Positions 3,423 to 57,943 of a DNA stretch of 64,000 bases are shown piece by piece. The position numbers and the translations under genes are program-made. The stretch is from Minisyncoccota bacterium (GTDB lineage: Bacteria; Patescibacteriota; Minisyncoccia; 2-02-FULL-40-12; GWA2-44-9). The stretch lies in contig DASZRH010000030.1 of the NCBI GenBank assembly GCA_035549275.1, positions 1,912 to 65,911 on the forward strand, written 5' to 3'. Position 1 is the first letter of the stretch. Every line of letters begins with the position of its first letter. The notes under the pieces are model-generated. The model made no database searches. It saw only the letters and a list, made by a program, of their open reading frames with translations, and was not told the origin of the DNA.

Positions 3423-3494
3423 GGGCCTGTAGCTCAGTGGTAGAGCACGTCACTTATAATGACGTTGTCGATGGTTCGATCCCATCCAGGCCCA
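3423..3494 (+). tRNA. tRNA-Ile (anticodon UAU)
   Basis: Cloverleaf by hand: acceptor gggcctg/caggccc, D-stem gctc/gagc, anticodon stem cgtca/tgacg with loop cttataa (TAT), T-arm gatgg-ttcgatc-ccatc. Confidence 0.75.
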
Positions 3495-3499
3495 CCCGC

Positions 3500-4930: not shown

Positions 4931-4999
4931 TTGGTGGTGCCGCGGGAGGGAATTGAACCCCCGACGCCAGCCTCTTCAGGGCTGCGCTCTACCACTGAG
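4925..4999 (-). tRNA. tRNA-Phe (anticodon GAA), CCA encoded
   Basis: The reverse complement gives gccgcgg-ta-gctcagtggtagagc-gcagc-cctgaaga-ggctg-gcgtc-gggggttcaattccctc-ccgcggc-a-cca. Confidence 0.85.
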
Positions 5000-5160
5000 C
5001 TACCGCGGCATAACCATACAGATAGTACCATAAATCCATTGATTTATTCAACCCTTATCCCCGGTTTTCTTTACATATCAACTTATCCTCTTTAAAAATC
5101 GTACCCCTATGTTATTATAAATCTATAATTATTAGATTAGTACAATTATTCATCAACAAT

Positions 5161-5820
5161 ATGCGAAAAGACAAGATAAAAGCGTATGAACTGCGACGAG
5201 AACGGAAAAGCTATTCCGAGATCAGCCGGCTTCTTAAAATATCCAAATCAACATTGACGAGTTGGTTCAAAAACGAAGACTGGTCCCGGCAAATCCGAGA
5301 TGAATTGGGAGCCCTTCAGTCTCTTTCTTATCCCAAAAAATTGGCGGCCATTCAAAAGGCCAACAAGGAACGGTGGTCTCGAGCTCGCCAATCCTATCGA
5401 AATTCTGCGGAAGAAGAGTTCCCCAAGCTGAAAAACAATCCTCTTTTTATTTCTGGATTAATGCTTTATTGGGGCGAGGGAGACAAAAGCCAAAAAAACA
5501 GTCAGCTGCGCATTGCCAATAGCGATCCGATGATGATTCGAGTGTTCAATAATTTCCTGAAGAAGATATTAAAGGTGTCGCCCCATAAAATTGGTATGAG
5601 GCTGCTTCTCTATCCGGACCTAAAAGATGAAGTGCAAAAAAACTTTTGGAGCAAAGCCGCCGGGATCCCATTGAATCAGTTCAAAAAATCAGTTGTCATT
5701 AAAGACAAACACCCGACTCGGCGGCTTTCCTATGGCATTGGGAACTTATATGTGTGTAGCAGAGAACAGAAAGAAAAAGTATTGACGTGGATTAACCTGT
5801 ATCAAGAACTTCTTGCTTAG
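5161..5820 (+). CDS. hypothetical HTH-domain protein; possible homing-endonuclease-like or mobile-element DNA-binding protein
   Basis: N-terminal helix-turn-helix-like segment SYSEISRLLKISKSTLTSWF. A central GLMLYWGEGDK segment weakly resembles a degenerate LAGLIDADG motif. GC content is lower than the flanks. It lies between tRNA-Phe and tRNA-Gly and is preceded by a 130-bp AT-rich tract. Confidence 0.5.
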   Translation: MRKDKIKAYELRRERKSYSEISRLLKISKSTLTSWFKNEDWSRQIRDELGALQSLSYPKKLAAIQKANKERWSRARQSYRNSAEEEFPKLKNNPLFISGLMLYWGEGDKSQKNSQLRIANSDPMMIRVFNNFLKKILKVSPHKIGMRLLLYPDLKDEVQKNFWSKAAGIPLNQFKKSVVIKDKHPTRRLSYGIGNLYVCSREQKEKVLTWINLYQELLA

Positions 5821-5856: not shown

Positions 5857-5927
5857 GCGGGTACAGTATATCGGTTGTACATCACCTTGCCAAGGTGAAG
5901 GGACGGGTTCGATTCCCGTTACCCGCT
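5857..5927 (+). tRNA. tRNA-Gly (anticodon GCC)
   Basis: Acceptor gcgggta/tacccgc; anticodon stem tcacc/ggtga with loop ttgccaa; T-arm acggg-ttcgatt-cccgt. Position 8 is C rather than U. No CCA encoded. Confidence 0.75.
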
Positions 5928-5930
5928 CAG

Positions 5931-7398: not shown

Positions 7399-8550
7399 TT
7401 ATACATTTCGATATCTTTTTCGGAGATCAGCAACTACTCTCGCCAAAGTTTTCACCGTATATTCAATATCTGATTTCGTAGTCTGGCGGCCGAGCGAAAA
7501 GCGAAGGCCGCCAGACAGGTACGCGGGCGCCAGGCCGATCGCTTTCAAAACGTGCGACGGCTCAACTTCGTGGCTGGTACAGGCCGAGCCGCTGCCGGCA
7601 TAGATCCCGTACTTGTCGAGCTCCACCAGCACGATTTCGCTCTCCATGTTTGGAATGGATACATGAATGTTGTTTGGAAGGCGCACATCCCCTTCCGGTC
7701 CGCTGATGACGGCTTCGGGGAGTTCTTTTTTGATTAACTCGATCATCCAATCACGAAGCTTTGCCACCTTTTGATTTTCAGACGGTTTGATGAGGCTAAC
7801 CGCTTTGGCCAATCCTGCGATGGCGGGCAGATTTTCGGTACCGGCTCGAAGACCGTATTCCTGGCTGCCGCCCAACACGATGCCGCTCACCGAGGTGCCG
7901 CGGCGGACGAATGTAACGCCGATCCCGCGCGGCCCGTATATCTTGGAGCCATTGAAGGTCAGGAGGTCAACTCCCAACCGCTGTACATCCATATCGAGCG
8001 CTCCAGCGGCCTGACACGCATCGGTGTGAAATACTACTCTGCGACCCGTTCGCTTGGCATATTCTCGGATAACTTTGCCGATTTTGGCGATGGGCTGGAT
8101 AGTCCCGATTTCATTGTTGGCATACATGATTGAAATCAGATCGGGTTTTTCTTTTTCAAGAAGCTTTTGAATATCTGCGGTCCGCACGTGGCCGAAACGG
8201 TCTACGGGAATGTATACAAGCCGAGCCGGCGTACAGGCCAATGCTTGGAGCACCGAGGGATGTTCAATCGGAGTCGTTAATACGACAGGATTTTTCAAGC
8301 GCGAGAGCGCTCCCCGGAGAGCAAGATTGTTAGCTTCCGATCCGGAAGCGGTAAAGACAATTTCCGTTGATCGCGCGTTTAAAAAACGCGCGATCAACGT
8401 TCGAGCCGCTTCCACTGCCGCACGCGCCATCCGGCCTGCGTTATTGAAGGCTGACGGGTTGCCGGCCAAACGCGCAGCGGCATTCATCGCCGAAACCACC
8501 CGCGGATCCGTAGGCGTTGCGGCGGCATTGTCGAGATAGATATTTTTCAT
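7399..8550 (-). CDS. class I cysteine desulfurase (IscS/NifS-like), PLP-dependent
   Basis: Aminotransferase class V signatures: TASGSEANNLALRG, HTDACQAAG, FNGSKIYGPRGIGV (PLP-Lys region), catalytic Cys loop SGSACTS. Start set at MKNIYLDNAAATP, i.e. the 'cat' at 8548-8550; the track ORF extends to 8580. Confidence 0.85.
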   Translation of the reverse strand: MKNIYLDNAAATPTDPRVVSAMNAAARLAGNPSAFNNAGRMARAAVEAARTLIARFLNARSTEIVFTASGSEANNLALRGALSRLKNPVVLTTPIEHPSVLQALACTPARLVYIPVDRFGHVRTADIQKLLEKEKPDLISIMYANNEIGTIQPIAKIGKVIREYAKRTGRRVVFHTDACQAAGALDMDVQRLGVDLLTFNGSKIYGPRGIGVTFVRRGTSVSGIVLGGSQEYGLRAGTENLPAIAGLAKAVSLIKPSENQKVAKLRDWMIELIKKELPEAVISGPEGDVRLPNNIHVSIPNMESEIVLVELDKYGIYAGSGSACTSHEVEPSHVLKAIGLAPAYLSGGLRFSLGRQTTKSDIEYTVKTLARVVADLRKRYRNV

Positions 8551-19086: not shown

Positions 19087-19350
19087 TTACTTGATAACTA
19101 TCCTTCGACAGCTGATCCCGTGCTCACGGAGAGCGTTATAGAGCGTTTTAGCGTGGAGAGTAATATCCGACGCCACACTTTTATGGCGAGTGGTGATAAA
19201 AAGCGTTTCGTTTTTAAACTGGATCGAGACATACGGCGCGTACCGGCTCATCACCTCCCTGATCACCTGAATTATTCTTTGTTCCAACGTGGCCTGAGAT
19301 TGGAATTCTTCTTGTCTGCGCGCCACGCGCTTGCCCATACTTCTAAACAT
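19087..19350 (-). CDS. DUF721-like small protein downstream of dnaN
   Basis: 87-aa basic protein directly abutting the dnaN stop. Position and size match DUF721 genes found after dnaN; no catalytic motif. Confidence 0.5.
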   Translation of the reverse strand: MFRSMGKRVARRQEEFQSQATLEQRIIQVIREVMSRYAPYVSIQFKNETLFITTRHKSVASDITLHAKTLYNALREHGISCRRIVIK

Positions 19351-20438
19351 TATCCTCGAAGCGGCATCACGATATACGTAATTCCGGTCATCCCGCTGGG
19401 TTTAATCACAAATGGGCTCCCTTCGCCGGTATATTCAAGGATAACATCAGACGATGGGATATGTTTGAGTCCGTCGAGAATATAGTGAAAATTCAATCCG
19501 ATCGTAAAACCGGCACCTTTCACCAGTCCAGCCGCCGTAGTCTCAATTTCTCCTTTATCCGGATTCTTGGCGATAATGGTAATTTTTTCCGACTCCGCGG
19601 CTATTTTAATATCTGAATTGCCAGGTGAAAACAATCCTGCCAGACGAACATTCTTTTCAAGGTCGTCTTTTTTTATCAAAACACTGCTGACGGATTTTTC
19701 AGGAATCACGTTTTTGTAGGGCGGATAATTTCCATCAATCACCCGTGAGACCAGTTCAATGTCATTATTACAGAAAACAATTTGATTGTCGGCGTATTTA
19801 ATCTCAATATCTCCGGCCATATCCCCGCACACGCGAATCAATTCTGCCACCGTATTTCTCGGCAAGATAACAATCGTATTTTCAGTTGTTTTTGCGGGAA
19901 TGACAACCTCGGTAAGCCGGAAACTGTCGGTTGAGGCGACCGTAATATTATTGTTTTTCGCCTGGAGATATACGCCGGCAAGTTCCGGCCGGGCATCGGA
20001 TAATGCTACGGAGTCCAAAACCGACACGAACGCGTTTTTGATATCCCGGGCCAATACCACCGCAACTGGATTATTTTTAATCTTAGGGATAATCGGAAAA
20101 TCCTTAGGATCAAGCCCGAGGATATGGGTTTTATAGTGGTTAGTCTGGATAAATAAGGTGTTGTTTTTGGTCGTCAGAGTTATTTTTTCGTCGCTCGTGT
20201 TGGAAATAAAGTCATTGAAAATCCGCGCCGGCACCGTTATTTCTCCAGCTTCATCGATTTTGACCCCGATTACCGTCGTGATGCCAATTTCAAGATTCGT
20301 GGCGCTGAATCGAAGCATTCCTCCTTCGGTTTTAATGAGGATATTGTTCAGGATTGGCAGCGATGTGTTTTTGGCGACTACTTTCTCAGTAAGCCCGACG
20401 GCTGCTTTTAAGTTTTGCTGACTGACGGTTACCTGCAT
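19350..20438 (-). CDS. dnaN: DNA polymerase III beta sliding clamp
   Basis: 362 aa with three-domain clamp architecture; N-terminus MQVTVSQQNLKAAVGLTEKVV...LPILNNILIK typical of DnaN; adjacent to dnaA. Confidence 0.9.
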   Translation of the reverse strand: MQVTVSQQNLKAAVGLTEKVVAKNTSLPILNNILIKTEGGMLRFSATNLEIGITTVIGVKIDEAGEITVPARIFNDFISNTSDEKITLTTKNNTLFIQTNHYKTHILGLDPKDFPIIPKIKNNPVAVVLARDIKNAFVSVLDSVALSDARPELAGVYLQAKNNNITVASTDSFRLTEVVIPAKTTENTIVILPRNTVAELIRVCGDMAGDIEIKYADNQIVFCNNDIELVSRVIDGNYPPYKNVIPEKSVSSVLIKKDDLEKNVRLAGLFSPGNSDIKIAAESEKITIIAKNPDKGEIETTAAGLVKGAGFTIGLNFHYILDGLKHIPSSDVILEYTGEGSPFVIKPSGMTGITYIVMPLRG

Positions 20439-20653
20439 AGTAGTTATAATTATATTTTTAAGTATTATTACTCTTATTATGTCTGTGGATATGGGGATAT
20501 ATTTTTGATCACAGAATTTAATTGAGTTAATACTTTGGTTTTTTAGGATTTTATTCTCTGACTGCGTGTGAATAAATATCGTGTATCTCCTGGATAATTT
20601 CTGATAACTTTTATATTCTTTCTTTTTCTCCCCCTCTATCCATGCACTCTATA
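20439..20653. other. putative oriC: AT-rich dnaA-dnaN intergenic region with DnaA-box-like 9-mers and a DNA-unwinding-element-like AT tract
   Basis: tgtggatat (one mismatch to TGTGGATAA), tgtgaataa (one mismatch), ctggataat and ttatcaaaa (two mismatches each), plus a 40-nt tract about 85% AT (tagttataattatatttttaagtattattactcttattatg) next to the dnaN start. Confidence 0.55.
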
Positions 20654-22024
20654 CTACTTATCAAAAGAGTTATACACACGTTCCTTGATAAGTACCAACT
20701 CTTGTTTTAAGGGTTCATCAACCGCCGATTCCGCTTTTATTTTTTCATACGCATGGATAACAGTCGAATGATCGCGTCCGCCGAGTTTTTGGCCAATCTC
20801 CGGGAAAGACAACTTGGTCTCATCGCGGAGTAAGAACATGGTGATTTGACGCGGACGTACCACTTCTTTTTTGCGGCTTCGCTTCAAAAGGTCGTTTAAA
20901 GAAATATTATAGAAATCAGCCACGGCCTTTAAGACTGATTGCGGCGATGTTTTTCGATAAGGCGTATTTAAGTAGGTATTTAAGATGTTTTTTACCTCTT
21001 TTACGTCCGGCAGTTTGTTGTAAATTTGAGCGAAGGCAATAACCCTGTTTAAAGCGCCTTCAAGCTCGCGGACATTTTTTTGAATATGAGTCGCGATATA
21101 TGACAGAACATCATCGGATAATTCAGTGTTTTTAATGGCGCTTTTCTGTTTCAGGATCGCAAGCCGGGTTTCATAGTCCGGAAGACCAACATCGGCGATC
21201 ATACCGCCGGCAAAGCGGGAGCGAAGCCGTTCTTCGATTGCTGGGATAGCTTGCGGCGGCCGGTCTGATGAGAATACGATCTGTTTATTCTTTCCATAGA
21301 GCTCATTAAATGTCGAAAATGTGATTTCTTGCATCTTTTCTTTGCCGGCGAAGAACTGCACATCGTCGATAATCAACAGATCAAGAGCGGCATAGCGGCT
21401 TTTAAGTTCTTCGACGGACTTATTCCGAATTGCCTCGACAATATGGGCGCTGAAGCGCTCGGCGGGAATATAGAGCACCTTTCGATCTTTTTGCTCTGCT
21501 ACCTTGTTTCCGACTGCCTGAAGGAGGTGGGTTTTTCCTAAACCGACGCCGCCATACAAAAAGAGCGGATTATACATTTTGCCGACGTTTTTGGTGACGG
21601 CAAGACAAGCGGCATAAGCCAGTTCATTATTGGAGCCGGTTACAAAGGATTCAAAGGAATACTTCTTATTAAGATTCGTGTTTTTATCAATATCGCTGTC
21701 GGCCGGAGCATCGGCCTTCTCTTCCAATTCTCGCTCCATGATGATCTTGGAGAAATCTTGCTTGATAAGTTCAAGCTTGGGCTTGCCGACGGTATATTTT
21801 ATTTCGCGAATTTCAGGCGAGAGCGCGCGAATGGACTGAAGAATCTTTTTGGTAAATTTGTCTTCCAGCCATACTTTCACGAAATTATTGGGAACATTGA
21901 CGACGGCAGACGTTTTGTCGCGGGCAATCAAAGACGTATTCTTCAGCCAAGTTGTAAACGTCGCTCGGGAGACGGTAAGTTCCATTTCGCCGAGGACCGC
22001 TTTCCAAAGTTGCTCGTTCGTCAT
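20654..22024 (-). CDS. dnaA: chromosomal replication initiator DnaA
   Basis: AAA+ Walker A GGVGLGKTHLLQAVGN; Walker B LLIIDDVQF; C-terminal DnaA-box-binding HTH (ITMFLLRDETKLSFPEIGQKLGGRDHSTVIHA); 456 aa. Confidence 0.95.
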   Translation of the reverse strand: MTNEQLWKAVLGEMELTVSRATFTTWLKNTSLIARDKTSAVVNVPNNFVKVWLEDKFTKKILQSIRALSPEIREIKYTVGKPKLELIKQDFSKIIMERELEEKADAPADSDIDKNTNLNKKYSFESFVTGSNNELAYAACLAVTKNVGKMYNPLFLYGGVGLGKTHLLQAVGNKVAEQKDRKVLYIPAERFSAHIVEAIRNKSVEELKSRYAALDLLIIDDVQFFAGKEKMQEITFSTFNELYGKNKQIVFSSDRPPQAIPAIEERLRSRFAGGMIADVGLPDYETRLAILKQKSAIKNTELSDDVLSYIATHIQKNVRELEGALNRVIAFAQIYNKLPDVKEVKNILNTYLNTPYRKTSPQSVLKAVADFYNISLNDLLKRSRKKEVVRPRQITMFLLRDETKLSFPEIGQKLGGRDHSTVIHAYEKIKAESAVDEPLKQELVLIKERVYNSFDK

Positions 22025-36502: not shown

Positions 36503-36582
36503 GCGTCCATATTCTACCGCATTTCTTGAAAAATGTGGACTACATCCGTGCGAATTGGAACCAAGTGATGCGGGAAATTAAA

Positions 36583-36825
36583 CTAATTGGTTCCGCTTAC
36601 GCCGAACAATACTTTTAACTTGTTTCTGTTCTTTTTCTTTATTTCAAACCCCAAATTAGTCGATAAAATAAAAACCGTCTTAAAAACCCAGAAACGAAGA
36701 TAATAACCACTTATGATTTTAGGTTTAACAAACTTGGGAGTTCGGTATTCATTATCTCCATTTTCTATTTCGGTCGATAAAAAAGTGTCGTTACCGAAAC
36801 CTATCTCTGCAAATACTTTTTTCAT
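36583..36825 (-). CDS. hypothetical small protein in AT-rich tRNA-adjacent spacer (doubtful)
   Basis: 80-aa ORF in low-GC sequence next to tRNA genes; no motif; may be non-coding. Confidence 0.2.
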   Translation of the reverse strand: MKKVFAEIGFGNDTFLSTEIENGDNEYRTPKFVKPKIISGYYLRFWVFKTVFILSTNLGFEIKKKNRNKLKVLFGVSGTN

Positions 36826-36848
36826 AATGGTTCTAATACAAACAAATT

Positions 36849-36922
36849 TGGTGGACCTGGCGAGAATCGAACTCGCGCCTCCGCAATGCGAATGCGGCGT
36901 TGTACCACTTAACTACAGGCCC
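36849..36922 (-). tRNA. tRNA-Ala (anticodon CGC), CCA encoded
   Basis: Reverse complement: gggcctg-ta-gtt-aagtggtac-aac-g-ccgca-ttcgcat-tgcgg-aggc-gcgag-ttcgatt-ctcgc-caggtcc-a-cca. Confidence 0.75.
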
Positions 36923-38913: not shown

Positions 38914-38924
38914 GGCAAAATATG

Positions 38925-38996
38925 TGCCCTCGGTACGAATTGAACGTACATCAAGCCCTTAGGACGGGCCCGTTCTATCCTTTGAACTACGAGGGC
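38925..38996 (-). tRNA. tRNA-Arg (anticodon CCU)
   Basis: Reverse complement: gccctcg-ta-gttc-aaaggata-gaac-g-ggccc-gtcctaa-gggct-tgat-gtacg-ttcaatt-cgtac-cgagggc-a. Confidence 0.8.
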
Positions 38997-39057
38997 AAGG
39001 ATGCGGGTTTCATCTTGCGAGGATATCATTTTTATGGTATTTTTTCAATTGCATTTA

Positions 39058-39133
39058 GGGCCGCTAGCTCATCTGGTAGAGCGCTTCCATGGCATGGAAG
39101 AGGTGACCGGTTCGATTCCGGTGCGGTCCACCA
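39058..39133 (+). tRNA. tRNA-Ala (anticodon GGC), CCA encoded
   Basis: gggccgc-ta-gctc-atctggta-gagc-g-cttcc-atggcat-ggaag-aggtg-accgg-ttcgatt-ccggt-gcggtcc-a-cca. Confidence 0.85.
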
Positions 39134-39177
39134 AATTTGATTTGACGAAGAACGCAATCCGCGCGCGTGGAAGAATA

Positions 39178-39214
39178 AAAAATAAGACATCTTTTGTTTA
39201 AGATGTCTTATTTT
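39178..39214. terminator. AT-rich bidirectional terminator hairpin
   Basis: aaaataagacatctt-ttgttt-aagatgtcttatttt; overlaps the stop codon of the minus-strand 77-aa ORF. Confidence 0.6.
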
Positions 39215-39441
39215 ACGTTGCTTTGCATAACTTTCACGCGTCTAATACTTGTTATCTTGCTATTCGGAATATCTAGATAATCCGTAACATGATCTTCTGT
39301 CGCATTGAAAGCAACCCGTATAGATTCGGGCATCTCTCGTATTAATACACCCGTACAGATATATTCTCTATCTTGCTTGCCGGTAAACGAGACCTCTATA
39401 TATATATTCGATACGTTTTTTTCTGGATAAAATTTCTTCAT
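39208..39441 (-). CDS. hypothetical protein (low-GC island, gene 2 of overlapping pair)
   Basis: 77 aa; ATGA start/stop overlap with the upstream 163-aa ORF; GC content about 20 points below the flanks; no motif recognised. Confidence 0.4.
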   Translation of the reverse strand: MKKFYPEKNVSNIYIEVSFTGKQDREYICTGVLIREMPESIRVAFNATEDHVTDYLDIPNSKITSIRRVKVMQSNVK

Positions 39442-39929
39442 TGCATCTTCTTTATTATCTTGATGACTGAGATTGGTATGACATAAAATGTCGGTCGTTT
39501 TTTTGGGTGCTCAATTCTTGAATTTCGATATCTCTTGGTTGTTGTAGGATTAGAAACTATCAAGCGCTGCGAGTCCACATCTTCAAGCACGCCGACAGTT
39601 TTTATCAAAGAACATTTCCTGCGCTTCGAATACGAGACGAGCGTTACGTCCTCCCATTTTACCAAAATCTTATCGCCTTGTTTTGCGTCACACTCTAACG
39701 AAGTTTTTTTTTGCTTCTTGTTTCCCTTGTGTATCAAACTTGGTGGTATGAGCAGACCACGAACAATTCCGTCGAATCTTGGTCTTATTTGTCTTACAAA
39801 TTCAACGCGTACAGACTGTTCGTCTTTTGAGACATATCCGCAGGCTTCATGTATTCGAAATATGCTCGTACTGTATGTGGGCGTATAGAGATAATATGAA
39901 TCTATGTATTTTATGATTTTTGCAATCAT
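39438..39929 (-). CDS. hypothetical protein (low-GC island, gene 1 of overlapping pair)
   Basis: 163 aa, basic (K/R-rich); no motif recognised; low GC. Confidence 0.45.
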   Translation of the reverse strand: MIAKIIKYIDSYYLYTPTYSTSIFRIHEACGYVSKDEQSVRVEFVRQIRPRFDGIVRGLLIPPSLIHKGNKKQKKTSLECDAKQGDKILVKWEDVTLVSYSKRRKCSLIKTVGVLEDVDSQRLIVSNPTTTKRYRNSRIEHPKKRPTFYVIPISVIKIIKKMQ

Positions 39930-39999
39930 GAGTTAATTCTAGCAAATTAAGAAGGGGTGGACACAAAAGAGATGCCCACCCACAAAAAGAGTTTCCGAT

Positions 40000-40212
40000 C
40001 TATTTCTTCCCGAAGATAGATGACCAGAAACTCTCCGCTCGCGATCCAGACTCATCTGTCTTGCTGAATCTTTCTGAGTTCTTAGAAGAGTTTCCTCTCT
40101 CAAAAACCCCAGCTTTCTCGGCGTCATCTCGAGCAGCATGTTCCGCCCGGGCGACGTCTTTCAGCGAATCTCCGCTGTGTTTGGACGTGTCACGATCTGT
40201 CCATTTACCCAC
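40000..40212 (-). CDS. small hydrophilic hypothetical protein (possible stress-protein-like)
   Basis: A GTG start at 40210-40212 is preceded by a strong RBS AAAGGAGG at 7-nt spacing. 70 aa: GKWTDRDTSKHSGDSLKDVARAEHAARDDAEKAG... The track ORF extends to 40284 but lacks an RBS. Confidence 0.35.
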   Translation of the reverse strand: MGKWTDRDTSKHSGDSLKDVARAEHAARDDAEKAGVFERGNSSKNSERFSKTDESGSRAESFWSSIFGKK

Positions 40213-40377
40213 CCTTCTCACCTCCTTTTGGGTCGGTTTAAGGTACGCACCAAAACAGAACCATTCTGCTTTGTCTGTGTACAATATTGCCTACCACCTA
40301 CTCTTCTGTCAATACTTTCAGGGTGGAGTACTATTTGACTATGGATTTTAACGTCATTCATCAGTCTCCACTACCCA

Positions 40378-41751
40378 TTGCGTTCGATGCAAAATTTTGA
40401 TATCGTATACAACTGCCCTTTCAAAATGGCACACACTATGCATACCAACACTATGAACACGCATGATATCCTTCAGCAGTATCGTCAGAAAATCGATCCA
40501 TCGGTAAAAACCGATTTTAAAGATCCGGTTATTCTTGCTCTTGCCCGAACCATTGCCGACGAGCTTGTTCGCGCGGCGGCGGACTTCCAGGAACTGGTTG
40601 CGCTTGAGAAACAGACCACGGCTTCGGAGGTAAAGCGCACGCTTCCCAATTTACTGCATTTGGCCGTAAAGCTTGCTCGCTCTCGTGCAGCCATACTTGG
40701 ATCACGGCCCTTCCTTGCTTCGATTATCCTTCCCGCCTATGGAGAGAATATCCGCATGAAAGAACGCGGTACCGGCCCGGATCGGCACCCCAACGGTGAG
40801 AATTTCATCATTGAGAAAAGCAAGCAGCTCGAATGGCTGTTTGCGGGTTCGCCGAGCACGTATGAAGTGACGATCGTAGATGATATGTCCAAGCCTGACC
40901 CCGAGACAAGCGGCCATGCTGCCGCTGCAGTGATCACCGGCAACAGTATTCCTAATTTCCGTGTTCTATTTTTGGAAGACGGCGTCCGGAACGAAAAAGG
41001 GGGCGATACGATTGTTGCCCGGGCCTTAGTCGGCGTTGAGCATCCCAAAAACACCAAGAAGGCTGGCGCGGTCTACTACGGTATCGCCAAGGCCATCGAG
41101 AAACACGGCATAGCCGATTTCCATGTGATTGTCTTGACCGATTGCGATCTCTCGGTCGATATCGGCCAGCTCGGAAATTTGGCCAATCCAATTCTGAACG
41201 CTGCTGCCATGGCGGCAGCCGGCTCACGCCGGCTGCCTGAATCCATACTGGAGATTGAAGCGGCTCGGAATCTCCGCGCTAACACGGCCCGATATTTCCG
41301 CGAGCTCTTGCTGAAAGGTTTGCTGCCCAAGGATACCCAGTGCGGCGCCAAAGCATTTGCGGCCGCGGCGCTCAGCGAAGTCATCTCTTCTGGCATGCAG
41401 ATTCTTGATTTCTCTTTCGACATCGAGCTGTTGACCAAGATTGCACTTCGGTACTCCCCTAACAAAGCGGTGCCCGTAGCGGTCGCGTGGTTCGACAGCG
41501 CCGAGCTGACGACCACGGATTCATCGGTTCACTTCAACATCATGAAGGCCCAGCTGGCGATTGCCAAAAGCAACCAGACTGGCTCCGGACCTGTATTCGA
41601 TGAGGCTGTGGCGGTATCGGAACACCTTACGTCCGATGAAGGTGTCTGGCTCAAACTCTTGGAAAACCTGAAAGACCAACCGGCGATCGTTGAAAAGGTT
41701 CAGTCCTTTGATCCGGCCATCTTGCCAACATTAAAGAAACTGTCGGTATAG
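40378..41751 (+). CDS. family 2 glycosyltransferase (GT-A fold) with N-terminal extension
   Basis: SIILPAYGEN (matches the GT2 IPAYNE-type motif); VTIVDDMSKPD; DxD-like TDCD; TQCGAKAF (GT2 Q-x-G-x-K-x-F motif). Confidence 0.6.
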   Translation: MRSMQNFDIVYNCPFKMAHTMHTNTMNTHDILQQYRQKIDPSVKTDFKDPVILALARTIADELVRAAADFQELVALEKQTTASEVKRTLPNLLHLAVKLARSRAAILGSRPFLASIILPAYGENIRMKERGTGPDRHPNGENFIIEKSKQLEWLFAGSPSTYEVTIVDDMSKPDPETSGHAAAAVITGNSIPNFRVLFLEDGVRNEKGGDTIVARALVGVEHPKNTKKAGAVYYGIAKAIEKHGIADFHVIVLTDCDLSVDIGQLGNLANPILNAAAMAAAGSRRLPESILEIEAARNLRANTARYFRELLLKGLLPKDTQCGAKAFAAAALSEVISSGMQILDFSFDIELLTKIALRYSPNKAVPVAVAWFDSAELTTTDSSVHFNIMKAQLAIAKSNQTGSGPVFDEAVAVSEHLTSDEGVWLKLLENLKDQPAIVEKVQSFDPAILPTLKKLSV

Positions 41752-41761
41752 CATAGCAACG

Positions 41762-41790
41762 AATCCGGCCCCTTCGGGGCCGGATTTTTT
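41762..41790 (+). terminator. rho-independent terminator
   Basis: aatccggcccc-ttcg-gggccggatt followed by tttttt. Confidence 0.75.
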
Positions 41791-41796
41791 ACACTC

Positions 41797-42291
41797 TTGA
41801 CCAATTTATATTTTTTGATTATAATTGCAACAGTCGCGGTTTTTGTTCTTTTAGTACGCGACGGGAAGGGAGCCATGTTAGCGACTGCCCAACAGAAGAC
41901 GACGGAATCCCGGGACACGTTCAAAAGCGTCGTTTTGTGGATCCGCCGCGTTGTGGCCGGCGAGGAATTGCCGGTCCCGGCGGAAGTGGCTGCCGTCGTG
42001 CGGTTAGCCGAACGTTCGAGCAAGGTCCTGTATTGGATCTTTGCGACGGCGAGAAACACGGCGCCTGCTACGCGGAAGGCCATGATCGCGGAGGGCGATC
42101 AGCTCCGGAAAAACGCGCTGGATGTTCTGGCGCGTGTCCGCGGACCGGTCAGCGAGCTTCGCGAGCTGACCGAGAGTTCCTTCCCTCCCCGCGGCATCGT
42201 CGCCGCGAGCGAGGACTTGCATCGAGCTGTCAGCCAGCTTGAGGCCAGTCTCGAAAAGGCCGATCAAGATCGGAGGCATCTGATCGGTTAG
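41797..42291 (+). CDS. hypothetical protein with N-terminal TM helix (high GC)
   Basis: 164 aa; N-terminal hydrophobic helix; GC higher than the adjacent island; followed by a very strong terminator. Confidence 0.45.
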   Translation: MTNLYFLIIIATVAVFVLLVRDGKGAMLATAQQKTTESRDTFKSVVLWIRRVVAGEELPVPAEVAAVVRLAERSSKVLYWIFATARNTAPATRKAMIAEGDQLRKNALDVLARVRGPVSELRELTESSFPPRGIVAASEDLHRAVSQLEASLEKADQDRRHLIG

Positions 42292-57853: not shown

Positions 57854-57943
57854 GGAGAGGTGGCTGAGTGGTTGAAAGCAGCGGTTTACTAAACCGCCGG
57901 GCTCGCAAGAGCCTCGTGGGTTCGAATCCCACCCTCTCCGCCA
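57854..57943 (+). tRNA. class II Ser-like tRNA with ACU anticodon loop (ttACTaa), CCA encoded; unusual
   Basis: Acceptor ggagagg/cctctcc; anticodon stem gcggt/accgc with loop ttactaa; long variable arm cgggctcgcaagagcctc; T-loop gtgggttcgaatcccac. Confidence 0.6.

Follow-up and report, generated by a model that had tools for sequence, protein, structure and literature searches.

A conserved three-gene cassette encoding a predicted two-barrel Sm-like protein in a low-GC islet of a Minisyncoccota genome

Introduction

Sm-type small β-barrels typically form RNA-binding toroids, and small β-barrels commonly join in tandem and oligomerize via strands β4 and β5 to serve as RNA or peptide scaffolds (bioRxiv 10.1101/140376). 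The subject of this paper is a low-GC islet beside a tRNA-Ala(GGC) gene in a 64,000-nucleotide stretch of a Minisyncoccota bacterium (assembly GCA_035549275.1, contig DASZRH010000030.1, positions 1,912 to 65,911 of the forward strand). This whole stretch is referred to as the window, and coordinates are those of the window unless a related locus is named. The islet contains three small genes, designated p70, p163 and p77 after the lengths of their products, and we conclude with high confidence that it is one copy of a previously undescribed conserved three-gene cassette. The central protein, p163, is predicted to consist of two small β-barrels without catalytic signatures. The carriers of the cassette are mainly Parcubacteria of the Candidate Phyla Radiation (CPR) from groundwater and soil metagenomes. 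The CPR accounts for a large share of bacterial diversity, and most of its lineage-specific genes have no assigned role.

Among described proteins, the LSm domains of LSM14/RAP55 and Edc3 (PDB entries 6f9w, 2vxf and 6am0) match p163 best in structure, over about 80 of its residues. These small bent barrels recognize short linear motifs in disordered partners, a behaviour that resembles the role proposed below for p70, but they belong to eukaryotic, single-domain mRNA-decapping factors and their identity to p163 is only 10–15%, with E values of at least 0.025. The ring-forming Sm, Lsm and Hfq proteins share the fold class, and the two barrels of p163 together with a putative third in p77 recall the hetero-oligomeric Lsm rings; p163 differs from them in having no Sm1, Sm2 or Hfq motif, no N-terminal helix in the model and no Pfam match, in its mixed charge and in belonging to an accessory cassette. 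The domain of the spore coat protein GerQ (PF09671/TIGR02728) is the only recurrent library hint, matching part of the C-terminal barrel in five of 50 family members at E values of at least 1e-3. The score is, however, 15.5 bits against a curated cutoff of 88.95, the p163 of the window has no match and the hosts are not spore formers.

In its layout the cassette resembles type II toxin–antitoxin systems, with small, overlapping genes of foreign composition and patchy distribution in a tRNA-flanking hotspot that a relative (L020) uses for a toxin–antitoxin pair. Unlike these systems, it contains neither a toxin fold nor a DNA-binding antitoxin domain, occurs with two of its genes fused, includes an ultra-conserved third gene and matches no defence or toxin–antitoxin model. 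The likeness to tRNA-linked genomic islands lies in a position directly 3′ of a tRNA, atypical GC content and the lack of the cassette from the same site in relatives; the differences are its size of about 1.1 kb, the lack of an integrase and of att repeats, and the position of other copies away from tRNAs. The protein families are new to every curated library searched, while the fold class (Sm-like barrel) and the tRNA-flanking islet setting are already known.

The cassette and its protein families

When p163 and p77 were used as queries in word-indexed protein searches, only the same strain was matched. An exhaustive HMMER search with p163 at a cutoff of E ≤ 1e-3 overturned this orphan impression and produced 77 related cluster representatives (28 at E ≤ 1e-10), most of them 155–175 residues in length and matched over their full length. 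An earlier note on this DNA, made from the sequence alone, had described the proteins of the islet as lacking any recognizable motif, and library searches agree with this for all three: Pfam, PADLOC and PHROGs gave no match for the p163, p77 or p70 of the window, NCBIfam gave none for the cassette families and a search of PDB sequences gave no meaningful match to any of the three family profiles. Ordinary housekeeping families, which the note had named as the contrary outcome, were not matched by the cassette proteins in Pfam or NCBIfam.

Gene order was compared over 15 distinct loci (the window, L085–L088, L089, L090/L091, L092/L093, L094, L095, L096, L097/L098, L099, L100/L101, L102, L103, L106/L107 and the fusion locus L108/L109). 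A p77-like gene directly follows the p163-like gene, often overlapping it, or is fused to it in all 15, and a p70-like gene lies 60–90 bp upstream of the p163-like gene in 12. The pairing of the 163- and 77-residue genes as an operon, proposed in the earlier note, is supported by this constant adjacency and by the fusions, while the two-gene architecture described there has to be enlarged: the unit comprises three genes, of which p70 is the most conserved. In the window and in nine other loci that were folded, a hairpin of −15 to −25 kcal/mol separates the p70-like gene from the p163-like gene; it is constant in position and different in sequence in each locus. A similar hairpin was read by eye in L107. 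(L089 was left out of the hairpin folding and of the dN/dS values given for p70 below.) The 64-kb window contains a single copy of the cassette.

Three p163 relatives (P0018, P0034 and P0035; 244–250 residues) have a C-terminal extension, and a hidden Markov model built only from stand-alone p77-like proteins matches their tails (1e-13 to 1e-16). The occurrence of p163 and p77 as one chain in these relatives indicates that the two are parts of one functional protein and act together. The fused P0018 (L108, 5812–6561) is encoded by a gene with a GC content of 0.457 on a contig of 0.586, next to AOX, DAO, PMSR, LexA-like and DinB-like genes; these neighbours are atypical of CPR genomes, and the p163 family may therefore extend beyond the CPR.

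The p163 family is characterized by the motifs KYIDAYY, HEAYGY, GLIIP, W-x-D-V-V, M-x-T-x-G and HP-x3-PTFYVIP-x-S-x-I, and the p77 family by Y-x-C-x-G-V-L ... I-R-V-A-F-N-A ... D-Y-L-D-I. The mean column identity is 27% in the p163 alignment, 46% in the p77 alignment and 63% in that of p70, the highest of the three. The ratio of nonsynonymous to synonymous divergence (dN/dS) is 0.21–0.30 for p163, 0.14–0.36 for p77 and 0.02–0.11 for p70, the slowest-evolving part of the cassette, and all three genes are under purifying selection. A split relative of p163 is found in L104 (1500–1998) and L105 (702–1200), where an 88-residue protein (W-R-D-A-A ... Y-L-I-P-K-K-T-I) is followed by a 74-residue protein that matches the C-terminal barrel of p163. 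Stand-alone proteins of about 80 residues (P0071 and P0082–P0085) match the same C-terminal half.

The consensus of the p70 family is MGKWTDxDTSKxSGDSSSKVSxAEHDARDHATxSGxFERGNSSKNSERFSKxDESGQRATSFWxSIFGSKK. The protein is rich in Ser, Gly, Asp and Lys (S 21%, G 11% and D 11% in the family, together 43%; Gly 8.6% in the window copy), with a grand average of hydropathy (GRAVY) of −1.29 in the window copy and −0.84 to −1.57 in the family. It is thus hydrophilic, and its composition suggests disorder. Set in this polar chain are the invariant aromatic residues W4, F37, F49 and F62/W63/F67. The synonymous sites of p70 are near saturation and as diverged as those of neighbouring genes (proportion of synonymous differences, pS, 0.54–0.86); together with the low dN/dS this indicates constraint on the protein and not on the RNA. 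A reading of the p70 region as a structured or dual-function RNA bound by Sm-like proteins was rejected on account of these diverged synonymous sites and the lack of any Rfam match. A role for p70 as the precursor of a ribosomally synthesized, modified peptide was also rejected; we infer this from the absence of a Cys-rich core and of a nearby modifying enzyme, and the barrels also seem unlike PqqD-type recognition elements.

The p70-like genes of L085, L088 and L094–L103 have GC contents of 0.44–0.55 and GC contents at third codon positions (GC3) of 0.45–0.59 even where the GC3 of the host is 0.24–0.42, while the p163 and p77 genes beside them are at or under the host level. RNA structure does not explain the GC content of p70, the synonymous sites not being conserved. 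In L085 the p70-like open reading frame (ORF) at 7784–7927 encodes 47 residues with an altered C-terminus, next to a p163-like protein identical to that of L086–L088, whose p70 counterparts lie at about 7704–7931. The shortened frame may reflect an internal deletion or an assembly error.

Predicted structure of p163

An AlphaFold2 model of p163 computed with the 50-sequence family alignment has a mean predicted local distance difference test (pLDDT) score of 94.5 and a predicted template-modelling (pTM) score of 0.88; the model computed from the single sequence was useless (pLDDT 29). The predicted fold is all-β, with two domains (residues ∼1–65 and 87–163) connected by a linker. A Foldseek search against the PDB placed LSm domains at the top (LSM14 in complex with a 4E-T peptide, Edc3, Lsm1–7 and SmD-like chains), over 79–91 columns and with target-normalized TM scores of 0.52–0.76 (0.66–0.76 for the best of them) and probabilities of about 1, but with E values of 0.025–0.3. 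The top matches in BFVD, which are about as strong, are small phage proteins of the Sm-like type; one of them, from a Gordonia phage, is annotated as RNA-binding. The check by AlphaFold and Foldseek proposed in the earlier note was thus carried out for p163, for which it gave a confident two-barrel model and no toxin fold among the top 50 PDB matches.

The p77 sequence shows a weak alignment to the N-terminal barrel of p163, and each of the three domains finishes with a strand resembling I-P-x-S-x-I. From this weak profile similarity we infer that p77 contributes a third barrel.

A proposed scaffold and its alternatives

In the explanation that we favour, to which we assign a probability of roughly 40%, the cassette would encode a barrel scaffold that binds p70. 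All three proteins would be nonenzymatic binding proteins. p163 and p77 would join edge-to-edge in the manner of Sm-like barrels to form a scaffold of three barrels, and two such scaffolds might pair into a pseudo-hexamer. p70 would be made in excess over p163 and p77, because it has a strong ribosome-binding site (RBS) and a terminator behind it, and would be the partner of the scaffold, docking through the invariant aromatic residues of its polar chain. Such docking is likened to that of the short linear motifs bound by the divergent LSm domains of LSM14 and Edc3. A more specific proposal, that a hetero-oligomeric Sm-like assembly, which might close into a pseudo-hexameric ring, and its dedicated, disordered p70 constitute a mobile, CPR-specific addiction, defence or RNA-regulatory device of a kind not recognized before in bacteria, is doubtful and seems rather unlikely. 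To our knowledge few defence systems have been described in the CPR, and from this analysis we know of no Hfq there.

Several observations weigh against the scaffold. A canonical Sm domain opens with a helix, after which come five strongly bent strands, whereas the model of p163 has no helix of four or more residues before its barrels. Neither the window protein nor any of the 50 family members has an Sm1 or Sm2 motif or matches LSM or Hfq in Pfam, and homology among the three barrel domains is statistically weak (hhalign probability ≤ 10%). The p163 relatives are bimodal in isoelectric point (pI), with 26 basic and 18 acidic proteins among the 44 stand-alone members with a pI outside 7–8.5, so that no uniform nucleic-acid-binding surface is implied. 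Finally, p70 is absent from L090/L091, L099 and L108/L109, and is therefore not an obligatory partner.

The earlier note had suggested a toxin–antitoxin, abortive-infection or other addiction module. In such a module p163, alone or with p77, would act as a toxin neutralized by p77 or by a disordered p70, and the cassette would persist by addiction or give protection against phage; this reading is weakly disfavoured and we consider it unlikely. It would account for small, translationally coupled genes of which two are adjacent in every relative, and for the patchy distribution, differing contexts, foreign composition and loss in a sister species. In relatives the hotspot houses a genuine YafQ/RelE and ribbon–helix–helix (RHH) pair (L020) and, in L018, a DNA methylase accompanied by a partner gene. 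The p70 gene precedes the other two and is probably strongly expressed, and its product shares with many antitoxin tails a composition of the disordered type. However, the search for defence systems by which the suggestion was to be checked gave nothing: in PADLOC-DB 2.0 no window protein has a match at E ≤ 1, and the 50 family members gave three isolated matches, each model matching no more than one member. No known toxin superfamily was matched in Pfam, NCBIfam or PADLOC, and Pfam, NCBIfam and PDB sequence searches revealed no RHH, helix–turn–helix (HTH), AbrB or Phd domain in p77 or p70. Foldseek finds LSm domains where MazF/CcdB, RelE or PIN folds would be expected of a toxin. Antitoxins usually evolve fast, but p70 is the slowest-evolving member of the cassette; the pI values of p77 and of the p163 family range from acidic to basic with no consistent acid/base pairing; and only one copy occurs in the 64-kb window, with none in phage or plasmid collections. 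The fusion of p163 and p77 in three relatives, the three distinct loci that have p163 and p77 without p70 and the bimodal pI of the p163 relatives argue mildly in the same direction. No test ties the cassette to described toxin–antitoxin, abortive-infection or defence families.

The LSm and Sm domains that are the best structural matches, the Gordonia phage protein among the viral ones and the basic pI of the window p163 could also indicate an Hfq-like RNA chaperone, in which the three (2 + 1) Sm-like domains would form a pseudo-hexameric RNA-binding ring and p70 would resemble, in trans, the acidic disordered tail of Hfq. Three domains per p163–p77 unit would suit a sixfold ring, and Sm-type barrels are typically RNA-binding toroids (bioRxiv 10.1101/140376). 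Nevertheless, this alternative appears quite unlikely given the missing Sm1, Sm2 and Hfq motifs and Pfam matches, the 18 acidic members of 44, and a best PDB match, LSM14 (with Edc3 near), that is of the peptide-binding, non-ring LSm type. An accessory cassette lost in a sister species is unlike a global regulator, the p70 gene with its saturated synonymous sites provides no conserved RNA ligand and Rfam identifies no family in the islet except tRNAs. It is very unlikely that p70 is instead a hydrophilin- or LEA-like (late embryogenesis abundant) protectant against desiccation, freezing or osmotic stress, with p163 and p77 as its chaperone or regulator. Hydrophilins are defined by a Gly content above about 6% and a strongly negative hydropathy, a description that the Gly content, GRAVY and Ser/Asp/Lys-rich composition of p70 fit; its strong RBS and own terminator suggest abundance, and the carriers come from groundwater and soil metagenomes. 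Ten p70 family members nevertheless gave no match to LEA, KGG, CsbD or other stress families in Pfam or NCBIfam, a mean column identity of 63% is uncommon among bulk protectants, where composition is the main constraint, and the barrel proteins are left unexplained. That the genes are spurious ORFs in AT-rich or decaying DNA beside a tRNA, as the same-strain matches of the initial word-indexed searches might have indicated, is refuted by the 77 homologues, the gene order kept in 15 loci, dN/dS values well under 1 and a confidently predicted fold.

The anonymous low-GC islet from which the analysis started is resolved into a defined unit, with three co-inherited families, a confident model, fusions that show which proteins are partners and clear evidence of movement. 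Should the barrels build a heteromeric Sm-like assembly that has p70 as its own disordered partner, bacteria would be using the Sm fold in a new way; a role of the cassette in addiction or defence would instead enlarge the small set of such systems known in the CPR.

Composition, layout and signals of the islet

The GC content is 0.357–0.427 in 300-bp segments across 39250–39999 and 0.51–0.58 in the flanks. The interval 39001–40000 is the lowest of the 64 one-kilobase bins of the window (0.395), and the 866 bp of the core, the most GC-poor segment of this size in the window, have a GC content of 0.380, compared with a mean of 0.507 and a standard deviation (SD) of 0.037 for segments of this length, only 0.03% of which are as GC-poor in the 64 kb. 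GC3 is 0.396 in p163 and 0.346 in p77, or 3.5–4.5 SD under the 35 long ORFs of the window (0.578 ± 0.052, minimum 0.467), while p70 is host-like (0.507). The drop in GC content reported in the earlier note is therefore real, but it spans about 0.87 kb and not 1.2 kb, and p70 is not part of it. The other features noted there were confirmed: the position beside tRNA-Ala(GGC) (by ARAGORN and Rfam), on its 3′ side, terminator hairpins, which lie at both ends of the low-GC core, the 4-nucleotide ATGA overlap of the 163- and 77-residue genes on the coding strand, and the GTG start and strong RBS of the 70-residue gene.

The features of the islet are listed in Table 1. The bidirectional hairpin next to the tRNA would close the cassette and insulate it from the tRNA gene. 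A second promoter-like site, at 39936–39908, was excluded as a promoter of p163, since its −10 box falls within the coding region.

Table 1. Features of the islet and its immediate surroundings (window coordinates)
Feature	Position	Strand	Basis and remarks
tRNA-Arg(CCT)	38924–38996	−	tRNA and Rfam scans
tRNA-Ala(GGC)	39058–39133	+	ARAGORN; Rfam tRNA, 57 bits; conserved anchor of the cargo hotspot of the clade
Low-GC core (p77, p163 and both terminators)	39134–39999	none	GC and GC3
Bidirectional intrinsic-terminator hairpin	39179–39214	both	Perfect 15-bp stem, 6-nucleotide loop, T-runs on both strands
p77, third gene, 77 residues	39208–39441	−	ORF
p163, second gene, 163 residues, pI 9.98	39438–39929	−	ORF; stop overlaps p77 start (ATGA)
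GC-rich hairpin with T-rich tail between p70 and p163	39955–39981	−	Putative internal terminator or attenuator
p70, first gene, 70 residues, GTG start, C-terminus FWSSIFGKK	40000–40212	−	ORF
Shine–Dalgarno sequence of p70, AAGGAGGTGA	40218–40227	−	GGAGG 8 nucleotides before GTG; kept in sister species L005
Promoter-like site upstream of p70, TTGACA–18 nucleotides–AATATT	40283–40312	−	Consensus match only, 10/12; partly kept in L005

Mobility and the tRNA-Ala(GGC) hotspot

The neighbouring genes of the cassette differ in every genome (NifU/Pribosyltran, RecG, MurJ/LepA, APH/Fic, RNR/CobA and BacA). The closest relative, with identities of 84% for p70, 54% for p163 and about 66–69% for p77, adjoins a ribonucleotide reductase gene and not a tRNA, and no tRNA lies beside the cassette at any other locus checked. 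Across hosts with GC3 of 0.24–0.58, the GC3 of p163 and p77 is nevertheless 0.15–0.40 and that of p70 mostly 0.45–0.59, so that the cassette keeps its own base composition in all of these hosts. This comparison of loci gives clear evidence of movement between genome positions, which marks the cassette as mobile. No integrase or recombinase gene is present between 39134 and 42370, and no flanking att-like repeats or duplicated tRNA 3′ end were found at the window copy. Relatives of the cassette were found neither in IMG/VR viral contigs nor among INPHARED phages or PLSDB plasmids; a trimmed family alignment was used for IMG/VR and the metagenomes, the full alignment being too divergent for locus scans. 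Of the tRNA-linked insertion suggested in the earlier note, the position 3′ of a tRNA and the foreign composition stand, but tRNA adjacency is not a property of the cassette and neither an integrase nor att-like repeats accompany it.

Yanofskybacteria-like relatives share a conserved backbone of p195, tRNA-Ala(GGC), tRNA-Arg(CCT) and the CCA enzyme, the last three of which were found together in 13 related loci. The CCA enzyme of the window is identical to HWA64538.1 from a Candidatus Paceibacterota bacterium, a member of the CPR. The comparison with orthologous loci proposed in the earlier note showed that the cassette is missing from this locus in 79 related Yanofskybacteria-like genomes. 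The p195–tRNA-Ala gap measures 39–57 bp in L009, L019, L020, L025 and L027, 0.4–1.8 kb at other loci and, in the window, 3.2 kb. Its cargo in relatives includes, in L018 (6029–7731), an N6/N4 DNA methylase (E = 1e-27) with a 238-residue partner to which no family was assigned (GC 0.365 versus 0.458), an AAA_28 ATPase in L053, a GIY-YIG gene in L013 (7310–7711), a C39-like peptidase in L030 and, by motif reading, an UppS-like gene in L006. The second gap, from tRNA-Ala to tRNA-Arg, measures 61 bp in the window and 550–780 bp in relatives, where it holds an HTH gene of 201–221 residues in L005, L006, L025 and L027 and the YafQ/RelE-like toxin and RHH antitoxin of L020 (7374–7846). The flanks of tRNA-Ala(GGC) thus form a compact cargo hotspot in Yanofskybacteria-like genomes, and this cargo (DNA methylase, RelE/RHH pair, GIY-YIG gene, HTH gene and the present cassette) could be mined for further accessory functions.

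Contigs L001–L004 are 99.9% identical to the window and carry no comparative signal. In the sister species L005, the flanking proteins are 85–91% identical to those of the window, and the GT2-like gene (glycosyltransferase family 2) and p164 are retained. L005 also retains the p70 promoter, RBS and first 17 codons, with four of the five codon differences synonymous; homology breaks after codon 17, and tRNA-Ala follows about 165 bp further on. Since the start region of p70 is retained, the cassette predates the split of the two species and was deleted in L005. The horizontal acquisition proposed in the earlier note is consistent with the foreign composition and with a site that otherwise lacks the cassette, but the p70 remnant in L005 argues against a fresh insertion.

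The GT2-like gene (457 residues) and the 164-residue gene after it (40378–42291) occur only in this species and in L005 and have a host-like GC content; the Glycos_transf_2 match of the former scores 21.8 bits, under the cutoff of 23.3. Both genes belong to the stretch from p195 to tRNA-Ala and therefore count as older hotspot cargo. A second low-GC islet (5161–5820, + strand, GC ∼0.40), between tRNA-Phe (4935–5009) and tRNA-Gly (5857–5928), contains a 219-residue HTH-type gene with 31% identity (E = 1e-19) to the 221-residue gene of L005. A LAGLIDADG-like motif (LYLGEGS in the L005 gene, noted also as LYWGEGD) was seen in these genes by eye only, and the assignment of the 221-residue gene as a LAGLIDADG endonuclease was rejected, since Pfam gives only a weak HTH_23 match; a PDB sequence search with the 219-residue paralogue of the window gave no match. 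The family looks like a mobile one that lodges between tRNA genes.

Other features of the window

A low-GC patch at 36550–36849 (GC 0.327) contains an 80-residue ORF (36583–36825, − strand) beside tRNA-Ala(CGC) (36849–36922). A third low-GC cluster (20286–21151, GC 0.383) lies in the region of dnaN (19350–20438, − strand) and dnaA (20654–22024, − strand), where the cumulative GC skew reaches its minimum at about 19–20 kb; the replication origin is probably located in this dnaN/dnaA region (19350–22024). The 64 kb contain 16 tRNA genes. Two of the ARAGORN assignments are unusual: a tRNA-Ile with anticodon TAT (3423–3496) and a tRNA-Ser with anticodon ACT (57854–57943) that directly follows tRNA-Ser(GCT).

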